Virus record (IMG/VR): IMGVR_UViG_3300017991_000051
Span: 64,001 to 128,000 of that record
DNA length: 64,000 nt
From: a virus
Direction: 5' to 3' (one strand)
The notes beneath the pieces were generated by a model that worked only from the letters and a program-made list of their open reading frames with translations, searched no databases and was not told the origin of the DNA. Positions within the stretch are counted from its first letter, which is position 1; each line of letters starts with the position of its first letter. This document shows positions 318 through 22,800 of this stretch, one piece after another. A program made the translations under genes and the position numbers.

Positions 318-1176
318 TTTTCTTCATGTCCTTTACGACCTTGTCAATCCTCTTCAACAGATCCCCGCGGTCGTCGTCCCGCGAGTACCATTTGAGCGCT
401 GAGCCAACCAGCGCAACGACGTCACTCAAATCGTCGAGCTTGTCCCGGTCGACGAGGCGTGACCTTATATCGTTCTCACGCATCCCGATCAACGCCGGGA
501 TGGGTATGTTGAGCGTAGCAGATACCGCCCGGAGGACTTCTGCGCCCCCGGGCCCCCCCGCTGCCTCGTCACCCGTCACCTTCGCAACCGCACGTGACAA
601 CTCCCACCCAAGCGCGTTAACGCGATCCTGGATAGCGCAGTTGTCCTCCAAATCGACGCGGTCCCTGAGCTGGCGGACTTTCCGTGCCGTGAAAGCACCG
701 GACATGAGTAACGCCTGCACATTGATCGTATCCCAACCGTCGCCGGCCAAGACCTTGGGGGTCTTCACCGTATACCAGCTGTCGGGACCGCGCACGAAAA
801 GTCCTGCCTTCTCCGGTATATCCGCCTTCTTCAGCAGCCCCTTAGGCGCCGCGAAGTAGAACCGCGTACAGTACGGGAGGTACCGCATCCACTTATCCTT
901 CCGGAAACTCGAGTTGAAGTCCGACCGCGATACCTTGATATCGTAGATCGTAGGTGCCGGACGTGTATACGACTTGTTGAGCGTAAGCACGTCAGGCACC
1001 GAGACCTCTCCCCGTGTCAGCCACCGACTATCTACTCCGGACTCCGCGAACACGATCTTGTCGTCGAACATGAACGTCGCCAAGTCCCTGAGCAGCGTAT
1101 GGTGTTGCCACTGCGGGCCCTCATACTCCGGCTTCTTTTCCTTCTTACGCGGCAAGGGTAACTCCCATCTTCTCAC
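310..1176 (-). CDS. MmcB-like PD-(D/E)xK nuclease-family protein
   Basis: VPDVL...YDIKVSRSDF...KW..YLPYCTRFYFAAP.GL....IP..AGL matches the MmcB/DUF1052 pattern. Confidence 0.75.
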   Translation of the reverse strand: MRRWELPLPRKKEKKPEYEGPQWQHHTLLRDLATFMFDDKIVFAESGVDSRWLTRGEVSVPDVLTLNKSYTRPAPTIYDIKVSRSDFNSSFRKDKWMRYLPYCTRFYFAAPKGLLKKADIPEKAGLFVRGPDSWYTVKTPKVLAGDGWDTINVQALLMSGAFTARKVRQLRDRVDLEDNCAIQDRVNALGWELSRAVAKVTGDEAAGGPGGAEVLRAVSATLNIPIPALIGMRENDIRSRLVDRDKLDDLSDVVALVGSALKWYSRDDDRGDLLKRIDKVVKDMKKNG

Positions 1177-10008: not shown

Positions 10009-10734
10009 ATGCCATTCGCTAGTGACCTCAAGCGAAAGGAAGTCGCAGGCTGGTGGTCCAATCCCAACACATTCGGAACCGCGCTACTTGCGCTCGCCAT
10101 CGACGAGTTTGGTACCGAATGCTTCGGATGGGAACCTGAGACCATCAGGATGGAGGTACAGGATACCTACCATATCACCCTCCCGCAGGCTAATATGGAC
10201 AAGCTCATGGCGATGATCACCGCCCTGAGTACCAACCTCTTCTACGTCTCCGTCGAGTCCTTCACGCATATTGCCAACGCGCTAAATGATTCGGAAGCCG
10301 ACTTCTATACGTGGGATCCCGTCGACGCCGACGAGGCGGCATGGGCCATCACGGAGGTGGCGCTGTCCGACGCACCGCGGCCGCGGGAGTCCTTCGAAGA
10401 TCGCTTCTCCCACGATGTACGCCGTTACGTAGGCGTCATAGTCACCGATGAGGGTATCGTATCGCCGCCCGACGTACTCGGTATCGCGGAGATGGATCCC
10501 TCGGTGCAGAAGGCAGCGGACGTCACGTTCGCCGACGATCCGTCGATGTTCGCCGGCTTCTACCGGCTCAGCCAGGAGAAGGCGAACGACGTCACCCAGT
10601 ATGTGAGAAAGAGAACCGCTGCGCTGCTTAACCAGCTACAACGGCTCCCCCTCCAAAATCGCGATGAGAAGACGTGGAGTAAGTTCCTCGATCGGGCCCA
10701 GCACAGTAAAGCACTCTCCGGCATTGCCGGCTAA
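10009..10734 (+). CDS. hypothetical protein (241 aa)
   Basis: GGAGGAGG SD; acidic globular composition. Confidence 0.75.
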   Translation: MPFASDLKRKEVAGWWSNPNTFGTALLALAIDEFGTECFGWEPETIRMEVQDTYHITLPQANMDKLMAMITALSTNLFYVSVESFTHIANALNDSEADFYTWDPVDADEAAWAITEVALSDAPRPRESFEDRFSHDVRRYVGVIVTDEGIVSPPDVLGIAEMDPSVQKAADVTFADDPSMFAGFYRLSQEKANDVTQYVRKRTAALLNQLQRLPLQNRDEKTWSKFLDRAQHSKALSGIAG

Positions 10735-10767
10735 TCGCGCCTCTGCCTCTCATACTCCGGCTGTTGC

Positions 10768-11043
10768 TCATCGTTTCTTCCGTTTCTTATGCTTGGCCTT
10801 GTAACGACTTTCCCGGCTTTTCAACCGTTCGATCTCGTTACACGCTTCCGTCGTCGTCATGTACTTATGGTCGGGCACCCACGTCTTCTCGGACGCGATC
10901 CATACTCGGAACTCCATCCGGATCCGGCCGCTGCCGGGCGCATCCTCCATCCTCGAGTTGGCGAACCGCTTGCTCCACGCACCCGCAGGCATCGCGATCG
11001 CCAGCTCGTTGTACTCCTTCACCACGTCCGCTGAACGTCTCAT
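10768..11043 (-). CDS. hypothetical protein with basic C-terminus
   Basis: ATGA overlap with the upstream gene. Confidence 0.55.
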   Translation of the reverse strand: MRRSADVVKEYNELAIAMPAGAWSKRFANSRMEDAPGSGRIRMEFRVWIASEKTWVPDHKYMTTTEACNEIERLKSRESRYKAKHKKRKKR

Positions 11044-14962: not shown

Positions 14963-15210
14963 CTACTCTTCCTCCATGGCTGTATCCAATAGTTCCAGAC
15001 TCCCTGACTCCACGAGTACAGGTACCATACGCTGAGCAGGAGCATGCCCCACTGCTTGTGCTTCCCGAACGTGTAGAACCAGACGGGCTGACTGAACAGG
15101 CCGAGGATGTAACCCCAGCGGCTCCAGCGCTCCTTCCGGCTCACGAACCAGATGGCCGCGCACCCGAAGGTGACGACACCGACTTGACAAATAATATCAT
15201 CGATAGCCAT
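14959..15210 (-). CDS. small 3-TM membrane protein (PnuC/SemiSWEET-like half module)
   Basis: Trp-rich TM pattern RWGYILGLFSQPVWFY...QWGMLLLSVWY...GVWNYW. Confidence 0.6.
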   Translation of the reverse strand: MAIDDIICQVGVVTFGCAAIWFVSRKERWSRWGYILGLFSQPVWFYTFGKHKQWGMLLLSVWYLYSWSQGVWNYWIQPWRKSR

Positions 15211-15214
15211 AATC

Positions 15215-15388
15215 TCAGTCCAGATTGAACCGGCTCAGTTCGTTACGGAGGGTTCGCGCCTCCTTGCGTGTTATGTGAAATGAATACCGGCTCCCTATGC
15301 GCAGGATCAGGCGTCGGTCGCGTACGTCCAACAGCCTATCGCTCGCAGGATCCGAATATACGTGTATACCGCGCATACGCGTACGCAT
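15215..15388 (-). CDS. hypothetical protein (57 aa), absent from the ORF track
   Basis: AAGGAGG SD; MRTRMRGIHVYSDPASDRLLDVRDRRLILRIGSRYSFHITRKEARTLRNELSRFNLD*; fills the gap before the 15210 gene. Confidence 0.65.
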   Translation of the reverse strand: MRTRMRGIHVYSDPASDRLLDVRDRRLILRIGSRYSFHITRKEARTLRNELSRFNLD

Positions 15389-15399
15389 GTAGGGCCTCC

Positions 15400-15745
15400 T
15401 TTCTTCTCCAATAGCTAAACGAAAAGGGATCGTTGCCCGCCCTGGTAAGGGGCGGGCGATACCTACGATTTCGCGTATTATCGCCTAATGTGAAAAAGAC
15501 TCCCGACGAAAAATGTGTAGAGGGTAGTTCATCAAGGATTGAATGTACTCCACACAGGCATTCGGGAGAAAAATGTGTGCACGTGACTGCCGCCCACCCG
15601 GGACACCGGAGTAAACGGCAGCACGCACACGGGGGAAACGGCGGCTTTCGCCGTTCTTTTCCGGAACGCACGACAGAGCCGTGCGTCCCAGAAACAAGAA
15701 AAGAAGAATAAGAATGAGTGCAGCTGAACGCTAATCCGTCTGCAT
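15400..15745 (-). ncRNA. structured non-coding RNA or long 5' leader of unknown family
   Basis: Six to seven consecutive hairpins with G-U pairs specific to the minus strand, directly downstream of a promoter-like site. Confidence 0.6.
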
Positions 15746-15748
15746 CTT

Positions 15749-15777
15749 ATTATGCCGCAATTCACCCCTTTTTTTAA
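15749..15777 (-). promoter_or_regulatory. putative early promoter (TTAAAA-N17-CATAAT)
   Basis: Shares CGGCATAATA with the 16722 site. Confidence 0.55.
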
Positions 15778-15778
15778 C

Positions 15779-16102
15779 CTACTTCCGCTCCTCCGGTTGA
15801 CCGCAGAACAGGCACTGATCTTCCGTCTCGTACTGCGGATCAATCGCGCCCTTTGGTCTCTCTATTGTGGTCCCGTCGAGTAGCTCGACCATTCCATCCA
15901 TACTGAAGTAGTGGCACGTATGGTCCGGACTGTCCGGACACCACCACCCGAAATCCTTCTTGCAGATGTTGCAGTACACGGAATCGCCGTGCTGGAAGAT
16001 CTCATGTGGGCAGCTTTCGATCAGTCGTGACTGAATGATCTGCGCCAGCTCCAGCAACTCCGTCACGTCACTGAACAACTTCCTTCTTTCTTCCTTCTTC
16101 AT
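15779..16102 (-). CDS. Cys/His-rich zinc-finger protein
   Basis: CPH, CNIC, WWCPDSPDHTCHY, CLFCGQPEERK. Confidence 0.75.
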   Translation of the reverse strand: MKKEERRKLFSDVTELLELAQIIQSRLIESCPHEIFQHGDSVYCNICKKDFGWWCPDSPDHTCHYFSMDGMVELLDGTTIERPKGAIDPQYETEDQCLFCGQPEERK

Positions 16103-16645: not shown

Positions 16646-16670
16646 GTGAAACCTCCTCCGTAAAGCACAT

Positions 16671-16703
16671 ACAAAGAAACACGCAGCGCCGGAGCGCTGC
16701 GTG
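16671..16703 (-). terminator. intrinsic terminator / attenuator
   Basis: CACGCAGCGC-tccg-GCGCTGCGTG perfect 10-bp stem followed by TTTCTTTGT. Confidence 0.7.
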
Positions 16704-16721
16704 CTAACATCATTCCATTGT

Positions 16722-16749
16722 ATTATGCCGTAAATTGCCGCCGGTTTAA
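16722..16749 (-). promoter_or_regulatory. putative early promoter (TTAAAC-N16-CATAAT)
   Basis: Shares CGGCATAATA with the 15749 site; heads the accessory-gene block. Confidence 0.5.
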
Positions 16750-17883: not shown

Positions 17884-19881
17884 TTAACGCCCCGGATGCT
17901 TCTGTGACGCGCCTCTCCGGACGTAATCGCTTATTCTGACACCATTGTAGAACTGTTGTATCATAATATCGTTCTGATAGCAAGCTTCTCCCAACATGAC
18001 GTCCCCGCCGTTGTGGCTGATCCGCGGATCCGGCCAGTGCAGGCGCTTGACGGCGGAGGTGCGCATGGCCCACCATCCCCCTGTCAGGAAGTCCGTCTTC
18101 GGCATGCCGCGGCGCGTCCGTTGCGGCTTACCCTTGTACCACTTGGCCTCCTTGATCCACGTGAGCTGCCCGGGTGTCAGATGGTAGAAGTATTTCTTGC
18201 CCACCATCTTCGCCCCCGGGTTGGCTGTCACGAACTTGTCGAGGCCGGCCAGCCAGTTACCGGAGACTGCGTGGCTATCGTCATCGAACCAGATCACCCA
18301 CCGGCTATCAAGTCCTGGTTTGTAGAACATCTTGCGCATGAGCGGATACTTGTAGATGTTCGCCGTCTCCTCGTACAGCCGCACATTCCCCTTCGAAACG
18401 ATGTAGTGGTCGAGGAGCCTGCGCACCCGGGCGCTGACCGCGTTGAGGCCCAGCCGCAACTCGAACAGGGAGGGGTCGACCGTCTGGTAGATGCTCTGCA
18501 GGCAACGTTGCGAGAGGGCGGGGAAGTCCCCATACAGCAGCACACAGATTGTCACCGGCGTACGCAGGCCCTTCAGCGGCCGATCGAACGGTGCGGCACC
18601 GGGAGCCATATTCAATGCGACAGGAGGAAGCCTGCGCTCCGGGAGCTGCGGGCGCTTCCGCATCTTCTTCATGATGGTCCGCGGAGGCTTCGGCGGCTTC
18701 GGAGGTGCGGGGTTCGTGGGTGTCGTTCTCCGCTTCGGGACCTCCTTGATGAAACGCCGGCGGTTGATATGGCCCCGACCGCGACGTGCGCGCCGCACAA
18801 CACGTGACAGCTTAGGCTTCGGGCCCGGCGGGAGCATGATCGGCCGGCGAACCTTCGGGAGCGCCTCCGTGAACATAGGCGGCCGCAACCCCTTCGGCAC
18901 CGGATCGATCGGTATCTTCTCGCCGTTGAGGTACCGACGGACCCCCGCCACCACCTGATCGGGCGTAATCAGTCGCAGGCACTCCGGCAGGTGCTTACCC
19001 GACGGACCCACCACAAGGCGCTTACAGTTCTTCGCCGGGTTCTTCCGCTCGCCGACGCCGGAGCGCCAACAGCCCTGCCGCTTGCAACAGTCGAGTGTGC
19101 CACCGATCGTATGTATGAATGTATGGTCGACGAAGTCCTTAGGCACCGGGTTCTTCAGTATATTCGTCGCCCACGTAGCGCGCGTGTAGGCCTCCCACCA
19201 CCACGCCTCCCTCCCCCCGGCGACGACCACGCAAGGCTTGTTGAAGGCCGCAGCCATATGCATCGTGCACGTAACGGGGCATATGACGCCCTCAGCGTGG
19301 TACACAAGGCACAGGAGGTCCCGCAGGCGTGTCTTCCCCACCAAGTTCTTGACCCCAGCCAGTTTGGGGTGCATGTGGCTCGCGGAGCCCACCTGTACGG
19401 GGAGGATACCATCCTCCTCGCGCAAGGTATCGACTGTCTGCTGCCAGTACTTCGGATCCCATATCTTCGCCGTGAAGTCCGCCTTCCCACCGGCGACGAC
19501 GATCCAGTACGGACGCTTGACGCGCCGGTTCTCCGGATCCTTCTCCTCGTCCGTCAGGTACACGTCCGGCCGCATATCCGTCGGCTTGATCTTGATACCC
19601 AACCGTTCACTCATGTCGCGGGCGAAGCCGGTACAGAAGTGGCCGGCCCGCTGGTTGGAGCTGTTGATCGACGTACTGTAGCCGACGCGATGGTGTACGC
19701 GGTCCTTATTCCTATCCGCGTTGTGGACCAGCGGATTGTTCCGCCAGATATCCGGACATTTTGTCCGGATGCATGTCCGGAACTCGTTCGGGTACTGTTT
19801 GTGCAGGTCACGGATCGCACAGGTGAACATCAGGGAGTCGCCCGGCGCCTGCACGTTCTCGAGTATCAATTGCTTACTCAT
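17884..19881 (-). CDS. bifunctional glycosyltransferase (GT9 heptosyltransferase-like + GT2-like GT-A domain)
   Basis: APGDSLMFT..IRDL, NLVGKTRLRDLL, MHMAAAFNKPCVVVAGGRE (GT9); TICVLLYG, WVIWFDDDS DxD motif (GT-A); start overlaps the upstream stop. Confidence 0.85.
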   Translation of the reverse strand: MSKQLILENVQAPGDSLMFTCAIRDLHKQYPNEFRTCIRTKCPDIWRNNPLVHNADRNKDRVHHRVGYSTSINSSNQRAGHFCTGFARDMSERLGIKIKPTDMRPDVYLTDEEKDPENRRVKRPYWIVVAGGKADFTAKIWDPKYWQQTVDTLREEDGILPVQVGSASHMHPKLAGVKNLVGKTRLRDLLCLVYHAEGVICPVTCTMHMAAAFNKPCVVVAGGREAWWWEAYTRATWATNILKNPVPKDFVDHTFIHTIGGTLDCCKRQGCWRSGVGERKNPAKNCKRLVVGPSGKHLPECLRLITPDQVVAGVRRYLNGEKIPIDPVPKGLRPPMFTEALPKVRRPIMLPPGPKPKLSRVVRRARRGRGHINRRRFIKEVPKRRTTPTNPAPPKPPKPPRTIMKKMRKRPQLPERRLPPVALNMAPGAAPFDRPLKGLRTPVTICVLLYGDFPALSQRCLQSIYQTVDPSLFELRLGLNAVSARVRRLLDHYIVSKGNVRLYEETANIYKYPLMRKMFYKPGLDSRWVIWFDDDSHAVSGNWLAGLDKFVTANPGAKMVGKKYFYHLTPGQLTWIKEAKWYKGKPQRTRRGMPKTDFLTGGWWAMRTSAVKRLHWPDPRISHNGGDVMLGEACYQNDIMIQQFYNGVRISDYVRRGASQKHPGR

Positions 19882-22800
19882 AATAGACGAAATTGGGCCG
19901 TAGAATGATCTCAGTGTGCTCGAAGACGTATAGGTAGGGTCGCATCTGGTAGTACGCTTGGTGCATCTCGTGTTCCATGTGTGCGTTCGCATCCGTATAC
20001 GTATCGGTCCGTGAAAAAGGTCCTAGCCAGTTGTCATGCCATGACACCCCGCCGGGCGATAACTTCATCTGTGCGTAGTCGTACGAGTTAGTAATGTACC
20101 GTTGTCCGCCTGCATCGATGAACGTGTTTCGCCGATGGCGAAACATCGTGTTGTCGAACGACGCATGCAATGGCTTGAACGTGGTGTTCGTCACGTACAT
20201 TGTGAGAATATCATCAATGTAACGGACGCGACCGCCAGTTAGAGGGACCGGCAGCACGAATACGAAGTTTGTCTCCCCAACATCAAAGCCAAGCTCTTCA
20301 CCGATACTCTTCGGGTACAGCGGAAATGACGTGTACTTGCCGGGTCGATAATCAACGAACGTATAGATGTCAACATCTGAATCCGTACCGACGGTTGACC
20401 GAACTACCTCCACATTGCCGGTCATAGCCCAGTACCCTACACGCGGACGCCGGTCGCGTACGAATCCGGACGGCCAGTCACCCGCCGGCCACCAGCCGCC
20501 GCGGCTCATACCGGTATGCATCCAGCTCGTCCGTATGATTCCCTGATCAGATGACGCTGGTGGATCCTTCAGGACCTTCGGAATCAAGTCCCCTGTCGCT
20601 GGGTCAGGAATACCGAATAGCTTGGAGTTGCGTACTCCACGCCCTTCGACGATGCCGGCCCCGTACCACTCCACCTTACGCCCAAGCGGCTGGTTCTGAT
20701 CGTAGTAGCCACCAACGCTCCAGTACGGACGCCTGTTACGGCGTCGGAAGACGGTGCCCTCCGTAAGATCACGTGACGACGATCCGACAGGGCCTCCCTG
20801 GTACGTATTGCCAGCCTTATGTTCCCACTTCCACCACGAGTTGGTAAAGCTCCAGAAATCGTAGAAGGTTGCATTGCCTAGGTGGGACGGTGCCTTGTAA
20901 TCAGACAGCCAGCGCCCTTCTGACGACTCGGCCGTTCGAATACAGGTCATCTTGTTCAGCAGCCTATACATACCATCGAAAAAGGTCTGGTTTATCGCAT
21001 ACGATACCGGCGGGAACGGAGGAGTCCAATTGAAATCCTGATACATGGCAAACCGGTTCGTGACCGAGAACAGGATGCGCGTGCCACCAGCACCCTTACT
21101 CTGATCCACCGTCAGGACGTCGTTCGTCTGCACGAGTCGCGGGTTGATGGCGATGCGCCCGTCGTTCGTTACCGAATGTCCGATACTGGCCACGTAGTAG
21201 GTGTCAGTCACCGACGCGAGGGGCGTAACCCATACTTCCTCCGCCGTCCACACGCTCGTCGTCTTCCGCGTGGACGGTGACTCCTCTACAGCCAGCATGG
21301 GTATCCACGTGTTGGTTCCCGGCGCCGTCGCCGTGTACACCAGCGTTGTGTACGCGATATCATCACCGCCGCCCTTCAACGCCCCGAGGTCGTCAACGTA
21401 TATCGTACGGCTGCGGATATCGAAAGGCATCGGCGGTATCGTCGTCGTATTCGGGGAGGGTGCCACCACATCGACCTCGACGCCCGGCCAGTTCGTAAGC
21501 GTGTCCCACGTAAGAAAATCCAGCCTGTACGGTGCGCTATCCCAGTCACCAAACTGACCCTCTCCCCACTGGATGGTCTGTCCGCGTCGAACGTAGTACA
21601 GCTCCATCGCGTAGTCGCTTGGCCGCAAGACGCCCCCCGGATAGTAGTAGCCGGAGGGCCCGCAGCTGGGGCGCCCAATCTTGTACTCCTCTACGCGTGT
21701 GGGGAACCCCATGCGATGCAGCCTCTTGATCGCTTCCGTGTAGTCGGAGCCGAGCAGGGTCTCCCAATCGTCCCGTATCTGTTCGGCGATATCGAAATCG
21801 TTGACGAGCACCCACGTATCCTTCGCATTGTAATCCAAGCTGTCGTCTCGCCGCATCTGCACGAAGAACGCATTACTCGCTGCGTTCCGGTAGTAGCGCG
21901 GCTGCGTACTGCTCATTGTGAGCGGATCCTGCGGCGTAAACGATTGCCCGTTGATGGCCGCGATCCACTGCTGCCCGGTCACGACCGTAACCACCCCGTT
22001 CGTCTCCTCGAACCAGAATACGTCGCTGAAGCCGTACGGTACCAGCGTCTGCTCATAGATCGGCTGCATCGCGTACTCCCCCAAGAACAGATCAACGTCC
22101 CGCTCCGGATGGATGTTGATCCCCCCCTTCGACACCTGTGAGGTCCAGATATTGACGTTCTCCGCATACACGAATTCTTCGTAAGGCTGTCCAAACTCCC
22201 AACCCTCACCGAGAAGGACATCGAAAGGCCCGACGTGCTGTACGTACCCCCACCCGCTGCGTCCGGGGTAAACCGTGTTATCGATCTCGACGATCTGCCA
22301 TCCGAGGTTCGTGCCCGCGCCCGTCAAGCTGTATATCTTCTCGGGCGTCCACGTCGGCACCTCCTTGACGATCTCGTACGCGCCCGCGCCGGACGGTATG
22401 TAGCGATCGCCGTTAGTCATCTCCACCCATTGCGGCGTACCCCCGATGTCGGTCCACACATAGCTTTCCTCCGTATCGTACCACGTGTCGAACGTACCGT
22501 CGGGGTCGGCATACGTCGTGTCTAGGTAGTACTCCATCATGATCGCTATCGTCGGCAGGAGGGTGCCCAGCAACTCTGTGGGGGGCATCCCGCGGAATGG
22601 TGTGGGCGTACCGTACCGTGGATCGGCGATCAGCTTCTTGTAAGTGTTCGTCCACACCACATAGTCATCCCGTGCGTATACACGGGTGGTTATGTTACTG
22701 GCCAGTATCGACATAGGCCCCCGGCCCTCATAGACCGCAGGGATCTGCTCCGTCGTGTAGTTCGTGTAGGTGACTGCGACATCGACGTTCGTAAACTGCT

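Follow-up and report, generated by a model that had tools for sequence, protein, structure and literature searches.

The 390-nt gap at positions 15389 to 15778 of the DNA analyzed here is very likely a real noncoding RNA or leader, and we regard it as a credible candidate for a well-delimited, promoter-driven structured RNA element of no known family. The DNA, referred to below as the window, is a stretch of 64,000 nt that corresponds to bases 64001 to 128000 of a complete 169,252-bp virus genome with direct terminal repeats; positions are those of the window unless marked otherwise. Our preferred reading, to which we assign a probability of roughly 0.45, is a leader that is cotranscribed with a 12-gene accessory operon and attenuates or insulates its transcription.

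A noncoding gap ahead of an accessory operon

The window has a GC content of ∼57%, and its minus strand carries almost all genes between 10.8 and 64 kb. Along that strand, tail and baseplate genes are followed by genes for a GT9 glycosyltransferase, a 280-aa protein, and an 89-aa protein; after a 100-nt gap come genes for proteins of 86, 106, and 107 aa, then the 390-nt gap, and then twelve small genes, whose products have 57, 83, 225, 163, 82, 227, 199, 86, 197, 82, 71, and 91 aa. This accessory operon ends near 10768, where a plus-strand gene converges. The gap and its immediate neighbors are as follows.

15779-16102, minus strand: 107-aa gene, the upstream neighbor of the gap
15389-15778: noncoding gap of 390 nt between two minus-strand genes
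15215-15388, minus strand: 57-aa gene, the first of the 12-gene accessory operon, with AGGAGG at 15400-15395, 6 nt before the ATG

In the public gene call, the gap is empty. When scored with a codon model derived from 42 long genes of the same phage, all four ORFs in the gap came out negative (−0.04 to −0.32 per codon, versus +0.2 to +0.4 for the neighboring genes). A protein-coding reading was rejected on both counts, and the gap is noncoding, as an earlier note on this DNA had proposed. The same note called it the largest gap, a statement borne out over the publicly gene-called part of the window, the scope of that comparison.

Apart from a metallophosphoesterase further down the operon, the neighbors of the gap gave no informative match to Pfam, PHROG, or PADLOC. 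The accessory region differs completely between related phages, and the nine flanking proteins that the collection contains are all singleton clusters at 90% identity. The 57-aa protein is Arg-rich and belongs to a small family of phage proteins of 53 to 63 aa (40 to 55% identity); the 57-aa unit is present six times within one 527-aa protein. Weak homologues of 53 to 63 aa in other phages have no gap ahead of their genes, and a leader tied to this gene family was rejected for that reason. Further upstream, the GT9 glycosyltransferase gene (17884-19992, minus strand) was rejected by the phage-trained codon model; its codon usage is thus atypical, and it may have been acquired. The gene is nevertheless syntenic and 45 to 56% identical in relatives.

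A recurrent and conserved promoter

A promoter of the form TTAAAA-N17-CATAAT had been proposed ahead of the hairpins. A consensus scan finds it there, with 9 of 12 consensus matches and a spacer within the 16 to 18 nt of sigma-70-type hexamer pairs; transcription would start near 15742. The motif TTAAA-N15/16-GGCATAAT occurs four times in the genome, versus 0.2 to 0.55 copies expected from block shuffles, and all four copies are intergenic and lie on the minus strand, which is the transcribed strand.

Genome 10727-10755 (L030:5728-5756), minus strand: P1
15749-15777, minus strand, starting at 15777: P2, with TTAAAA at 15777-15772, a 17-nt spacer, and GG plus CATAAT (CATAAT at 15754-15749)
From 16749, minus strand: P3, directly past the stop codon of the 89-aa gene
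Genome 158474, minus strand: P4, ending 20 nt before a tRNA-Met gene

The motif is also present at the syntenic gap in seven related loci (L012, L015/16/19, L026, L027, L029, and L035). In these relatives it occupies the gap right past a ∼98-aa gene, which is the position of P3, and the similarity between P3 and L012 extends 31 nt beyond the −10 element. Recurrence within the genome, conservation in relatives, and the tRNA behind one copy all bear out the proposal that the RNA has its own promoter. Judged from these sequence comparisons, the promoter appears real and conserved across the clade, and it is the firmest new result of the analysis. No sigma factor was detectable in the phage, so the motif is probably read by the host holoenzyme.

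At P1, P3, L015, and L027, one hairpin and a U-run lie within 10 to 60 nt past the promoter, ahead of a ribosome-binding site and an ORF. Within P1, the −10 region is repeated in perfect inverted form over 11 nt, with 3 nt between the copies (ATTATGCCGTA and TACGGCATAAT), an arrangement that resembles an operator; then come a 23-bp hairpin with T7, a ribosome-binding site, and an ORF. In a scan of 390-nt windows, the one at P1 also ranked with the most structured of the genome. The P3 unit (16646-16749, minus strand) has an 11- to 12-bp hairpin and U-rich tail at 16705-16678, ahead of the ribosome-binding site of the 86-aa gene.

Seven hairpins and a U-rich trailer

RNAfold recovered all seven hairpins of the earlier note at its coordinates, with small differences in pair counts; together they comprise 132 base pairs. 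From the predicted 5′ end of the transcript, the parts are as follows.

15719-15744, minus strand: H1, a hairpin at the predicted 5′ end of the transcript, 9 bp with 2 G-U pairs
15688-15716, minus strand: CU (pyrimidine) tract of 29 nt, which can pair with the purine tract and SD site at 15395-15410
15654-15700, minus strand: H2, a hairpin of 21 bp with 3 G-U pairs, −28.9 kcal/mol on the minus strand versus −17.9 kcal/mol on the plus strand
15636-15656, minus strand: H3, a hairpin of 8 bp, or alternatively a 3-bp stem with a GAAA loop; C5 is next
15569-15630, minus strand: H4 with U5 (stem 15577-15630), 24 bp with 5 G-U pairs
15492-15568, minus strand: H5, nested stems of 7 + 9 + 4 bp (RNAfold hairpin 15500-15568)
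15455-15485, minus strand: H6, a hairpin whose extended form has 3 nt in common with H7
15435-15457, minus strand: H7, a hairpin with an 8-bp all-GC stem and a 7-nt loop
15403-15436, minus strand: 3′ junction or trailer, U-rich, containing TTTAGCTATTGG at 15419-15408

Two of the hairpins are larger or richer in G-U than first described. The core of H2 at 15660-15692 was recovered, within a fold of 21 bp and 3 G-U pairs rather than 13 bp and 2 G-U pairs, and the long hairpin H4 has 5 G-U pairs instead of 3; its energy is −40.7 kcal/mol on the minus strand versus −33.0 kcal/mol on the plus strand. The 11-nt repeat ACACATTTTTC is indeed present in two copies, the second of which is housed in H5. 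Hairpins near the 5′ end, like H1, also lie past the same promoter at P1, P3, L015, L029, and L012. In the minimum free energy (MFE) structure of the whole gap, a 12-bp helix that includes the promoter sequence closes domain 1.

Pairing between the CU tract and the SD region is highly probable in the ensemble folded from the predicted start site. The duplex is no better than composition-matched shuffles, however, so the pairing is only suggestive and the complementarity could follow from composition alone.

H4, both H5 stems, and H7 are each followed by U4 to U5. A terminator scan, which called for a GC-rich stem, a loop of 3 to 8 nt, and at least 5 U in a window of 8 nt starting 0 to 2 nt past the stem, made no call in the gap. 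On visual inspection, H5 has U5 immediately after its inner stem and again after its outer stem, but both stems enclose long loops, and the U-runs of H4 and H7 lie at least 3 nt past the stem. H4 is terminator-like in look, with its U5 (15573-15569) beginning three nt past the stem, and was not called by the scan. The earlier suggestion that H6 and H7 exclude each other proved weak: they overlap by only 3 nt, and both are present together in the MFE structure. The mutually exclusive helices of a riboswitch-type attenuator are therefore not found in H6 and H7.

Fold stability and strand preference

The structure is far more stable than expected by chance, as an RNAfold comparison with shuffled sequences on both strands confirmed. 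The minus strand of the gap folds at −165.8 kcal/mol (z = −8.16) and the plus strand at −147.4 kcal/mol (z = −6.09), with none of 100 shuffles as stable in either case; the first 260 nt past the −10 element give a z of −8.3. In a genome scan of 390-nt windows, which covered ∼132 of 169 kb, windows overlapping the gap ranked second and third on the minus strand. Once GC was corrected for, the gap itself (GC 0.51) had a residual of about −4.6 standard deviations, larger than that of any other window scanned. The other 390-nt stretch with top-ranking structure, again on both strands, is at genome 43161-43550, outside the window analyzed here.

The earlier note had stated that mismatches resolve as G-U pairs only on the minus strand. 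Among the stems shared by both strands (H1, H2, H4, and H5), we counted 11 G-U pairs versus 1 C-A (binomial P = 0.006); the 11 minus-strand G-U pairs are C-A mismatches on the plus strand, and one case is reversed. The bias thus stands, with one opposite case and with H5 to H7 symmetric. Since G and C are equal in the RNA, at 100 each, base composition does not explain it. It is located in the 5′ half, where domain 1 folds at −63.3 kcal/mol on the minus strand versus −49.6 kcal/mol on the plus strand; H5 to H7 show no strand preference. Strand-biased C-to-T mutation pressure could add to the G-U bias, which is supportive of, and not decisive for, selection on a minus-strand RNA. The data support a structure that favors the minus, transcribed strand.

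A trailer shared with a tRNA-Met unit

The trailer takes in the final three bases of H7 and extends as far as the purine tract. Over 15436-15403 it is identical at 27 of 34 positions to the 3′ end and trailer of the tRNA-Met behind P4 (z = 8.6). This tRNA-Met gene (genome 158347-158425, L031:1348-1426, minus strand) lies 20 nt past P4 and was identified by both ARAGORN and Rfam, with 59 to 64 bits. The 12-mer TTTAGCTATTGG also occurs exactly near the 3′ end of the L029 leader, where 15 of 16 positions match when flanks are included, and with one substitution in L012. Variants with two substitutions lie past the P1 hairpin and past tRNA-Trp; at two substitutions ∼8.5 chance hits per genome are expected, so only exact or near-exact copies carry weight.

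ARAGORN found nine tRNAs in the phage, most of which have a ribosome-binding site and an ORF within ∼25 nt downstream. This spacing points to tRNA-mRNA cotranscripts, and operon-embedded RNA genes directly ahead of ribosome-binding sites would thus be ordinary in this genome. From the sequence, P2 and P4 look like two copies of one module, consisting of a promoter, an RNA, a trailer, and a ribosome-binding site. The genome also contains a full-length tmRNA outside the window (genome 8958-9318, L030:3959-4319, minus strand; Rfam RF00023, 131.5 bits). Its gene lies ∼1.4 kb downstream of P1, and ARAGORN gives the tag peptide as ADNEALPMAA.

Known RNA families and DNA elements

No Rfam 15 family matched anywhere in the window at gathering scores, in agreement with the earlier claim that the RNA belongs to no known family. 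At E values of up to 10, the region 15100-16000 gave only two hits, both at chance level: a plant miRNA and the terminator stem of the Thr leader, the latter matching H7 (E = 1.4) too weakly to be meaningful. A tRNA or tmRNA was rejected, because ARAGORN finds none in the window yet finds nine tRNAs and a tmRNA elsewhere in the genome; a repeat array, CRISPR, or TIGR was rejected because the repeats are two-copy only and 9 to 16 nt long. Both results accord with the earlier remark that tRNA, tmRNA, and CRISPR hallmarks are missing.

Several DNA-level and gene-associated elements were also considered. A replication origin found no backing, as there are no iterons or repeat family and cumulative GC skew is monotonic across the window. 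No pair of R″ (RYYYAAC) and R′ (GTTRRRY) sites occurs on either strand of 15300-15850, which rejects an integron attC site, and the gap has no similarity to the rest of the genome. A retron or DRT noncoding RNA was rejected, since the genome has no RVT_1 match and the neighbors have no such match to Pfam, PHROG, or PADLOC. A group I or II intron splitting one gene was rejected because both flanking ORFs have free-standing homologues and no intron model matched. GGA occurs 7 times in 390 nt versus ∼6 expected, by hand count, which rejects a CsrA-type sponge; nothing supported the earlier idea of a sponge or anti-defense RNA.

The Q (PF06530) and NusG (PF02357) families are absent from the complete genome, whereas control genomes matched; this leaves room for a novel antitermination factor. 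No RNase III is encoded by the phage, and cleavage of the 20- to 24-bp stems, if any, would therefore fall to the host enzyme.

Unrelated structured RNAs behind the same promoter in relatives

A search with the 280-aa protein family gained real relatives (37 to 57% identity) and thereby allowed the promoter comparison. Their contigs keep the order fiber, GT9, 280 aa, and ∼98 aa, and one lineage has a TerL of 56% identity. Beyond these, the 280-aa family search gave nothing further in IMG/VR or GTDB, and only five short loci in metagenomes. The units with structured RNAs behind the promoter are as follows.

P2 unit: ∼330 nt; sense z of −8.3 over the first 260 nt
L012 unit: 225 nt; sense z of −4.6, with no sense-strand preference
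L029 unit, 833-1105, plus strand: 273 nt; z of −9.0 sense and −6.4 antisense
L035 unit: at least 117 nt, with the contig ending there; sense z of −3.7

The L029 leader, on a 1.3-kb contig, contains a near-perfect 26-bp hairpin and ends in the 12-mer. At L035:3592-3810 (plus strand), a tRNA-Asn is followed by C runs of 8 to 10 and G10, which could form a hairpin, and then by the conserved promoter and four hairpins up to the contig end.

The bodies behind the promoter in P2, L012, L029, and L035 have no detectable common sequence, and a covariance model of H2 to H4 (R1) matched none of the relatives' bodies. The L011 to L014 leaders are identical and therefore yield no covariation. Homologues of the RNA were absent from 50,697 GenBank phages (blastn) and from ∼60 retrieved loci (nhmmer, blastn, and R1), and blastn-short and R1 gave no paralogue in the phage's own genome. 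The pattern ACACATTTTTC-N-ACACATTTTTC had six hits in IMG/VR, none similar to the RNA. The pattern GGCATAAT-N310-340-TTTAGCTATTGG had two hits in IMG/VR, both AT-rich and unstructured (z = −0.5), and 29 hits in GTDB, about the number estimated by chance, none of which matched R1. Searches of IMG/VR with the 107-aa, 225-aa, and TerL proteins gave no syntenic relatives; homologues of the 225-aa and 107-aa proteins (34 to 52% and 40 to 47% identity, respectively) lie in unrelated contexts with no comparable gap, and at L009 the gap contains a small zinc-ribbon ORF (z = +0.3).

A proposed leader for the accessory operon

In the preferred reading, the gap would be transcribed from the minus strand into a highly structured noncoding RNA of ∼330 to 350 nt, starting at the sigma-70-like early promoter TTAAA-N16-GGCATAAT that is conserved in the phage clade, and the same transcript would carry the RNA and the 12 small accessory genes downstream. 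Acting in cis, the hairpin/U-run elements H4, H5, and H7 would stop or slow RNA polymerase, which would shield the accessory operon from the upstream genes and set the level of read-through transcript. The 20- to 24-bp hairpins and the 5′ hairpin are probably also processing or stabilizing sites, and the CU tract may mask the ribosome-binding site of the first gene. We infer the transcript ends, the termination or attenuation, the processing, and the masking from the sequence and its predicted folds.

Since the stretch from the hairpins to the 57-aa gene contains nothing promoter-like, the operon must be transcribed through the structure, and the element is in that literal sense a leader. The earlier proposal of a leader for the 10.7- to 15.4-kb operon is sustained in that the element directly precedes the operon at 15.4 to 10.8 kb; a terminator/antiterminator alternative between H6 and H7 is weak. 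The arrangement of a promoter and then a hairpin with a U-run also recurs at P1, P3, L027, and L015. Against a leader stand the failure to find a homologue of the RNA, the negative terminator scan of the gap with the U-runs of H4 and H7 at least 3 nt past their stems, and the absence of a detected Q, NusG-like, or sigma factor that would allow read-through of terminators. Seven hairpins with 132 bp also far exceed what attenuation needs, given that one hairpin suffices at P1 and P3.

That excess of structure is one reason to consider the main rival, a stand-alone stable RNA gene, either cut from the operon transcript as the phage's tRNAs are or ending at H7, that would act in trans, for example as a decoy or regulator; we consider this possible if somewhat doubtful. 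It holds that the space between promoter and trailer is a slot with a different RNA in each lineage. The promoter and 34-nt trailer in common with the tRNA-Met unit (27/34, z = 8.6) fit this idea well, as do the tRNAs that adjoin ORF ribosome-binding sites in the same phage, its bona fide tmRNA, the unrelated hairpin RNAs behind the same promoter in L029, L012, and L035, and the identical 12-mer that ends the L029 leader. Yet such an RNA has no known target, partner protein, or conserved core, its antisense matches to the genome are not above chance, and GGA is not enriched as in a CsrA-type sponge; from lineage to lineage the bodies have no sequence in common, and what occupies the slot may just be unrelated leaders. 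A bolder form of the idea, which we think distinctly unlikely, is an "RNA cargo slot" in a large sediment phage clade, in which the early promoter and the U-rich trailer TTTAGCTATTGG bracket a lineage-swapped body (a tRNA, a single hairpin, or an unrelated highly structured RNA) and the bodies are fast-evolving trans-acting RNAs exchanged like cassettes; they could, for example, be decoys against host RNA-sensing or RNA-guided defenses. The same RNA could be a cis-acting leader and an excised trans-acting molecule; the pR′ leader of lambda is a short RNA as well as a regulatory leader.

Three further explanations each have very little probability. The gap might chiefly serve as the 3′ end of the three-gene unit that starts at P3, a stack of terminator or stabilizer hairpins to which P2 contributes little. 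There is no terminator between the 107-aa gene and the gap, since the −35 element starts 2 nt past the stop codon, and the 12-bp helix that closes domain 1 in the whole-gap MFE includes the promoter; several hairpins also carry U-runs. The promoter motif is conserved and used for a tRNA, however, the structure is equally significant without the closing helix, and the downstream operon has no other promoter, all of which make this very unlikely. An element acting as DNA, such as a transcription-primed replication origin or a recombination site of the attC type, would accord with the folding of both strands far better than chance, with the lack of strand preference in the 3′ half (H5 to H7), and with the precedent of ColE1 RNA II and the T4 origins, where a promoter and a structured RNA form an origin. 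It is hard to reconcile with the want of iterons, of a repeat family, of a GC-skew turn anywhere in the window, of an attC R″/R′ core pair, and of anything similar elsewhere in the genome, and the G-U bias favors one strand while relatives hold unrelated sequences at the same position. Equally improbable is that the gap has no specific function and is leftover or fast-evolving palindromic DNA, tolerated as noncoding in a hypervariable accessory region. An orphan sequence for which conservation is not seen, in a region entirely different from one related phage to the next, accords with such a view. Neutral sequence would not, however, be expected to reach a z of −8 with a G-U bias on the sense strand; the gap is the largest nearby, in the generally compact setting of a phage genome, and the lack of repeat copies speaks against a multicopy mobile palindrome.

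Comparison with known systems

The leader reading has a close parallel in phage lambda, where the pR′-tR′ region gives a 194-nt "6S" leader transcript that is read through by Q; HK022 put RNA is a related case. As in pR′-tR′, a presumably constitutive promoter is followed here by hairpin/U-run stops within tens to hundreds of nt and by an operon without its own promoter, in a layout that recurs at P1, at P3, and in relatives. Unlike lambda, the phage has no PF06530 or NusG paralogue (Q was checked by Pfam search only), the leader is longer and has seven hairpins, and its stops are not canonical terminators by the scan; unlike in HK022 put, no conserved stem-loop pair could be defined, as no homologues were found. 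The lambda N leader consists of nutL and an RNase III hairpin, and the T7 early region has RNase III sites. Here, too, irregular hairpins of at least 20 bp lie between a promoter and small early genes, and, as in the N leader, the first gene encodes a small Arg-rich protein. In contrast to the N leader, no boxA or boxB was identified, the phage has no RNase III, and no such leader precedes the genes for the 57-aa protein's homologues in other phages.

Stable RNA genes in phage operons are exemplified by tRNA clusters and by the T4 "species 1 and 2" RNAs of unknown function. The RNA described here resembles them in that its promoter and 3′ trailer match the phage's own tRNA-Met unit and that it directly precedes the ribosome-binding site of an ORF; it differs in being no tRNA, tmRNA, or Rfam family and in having four times the length of a tRNA. 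With riboswitches and T-boxes it has in common a long structured 5′ leader and a GC hairpin with a U-rich tail before the first gene, whereas it has no Rfam match even at an E value of 10, an overlap of H6 and H7 of only 3 nt, and downstream genes without a metabolic theme.

To our knowledge, phage noncoding RNAs that are understood are few, and the majority of candidates do not even have a credible promoter. The candidate RNA has a promoter backed by recurrence, conservation, and a tRNA, a strand-biased structure among the strongest in its genome, and a 3′ junction in common with a tRNA unit, which make it a well-defined target for study. The presence of other hairpin-rich RNAs at the same place in relatives hints at a general means of controlling accessory operons, or at RNA cargo for them.
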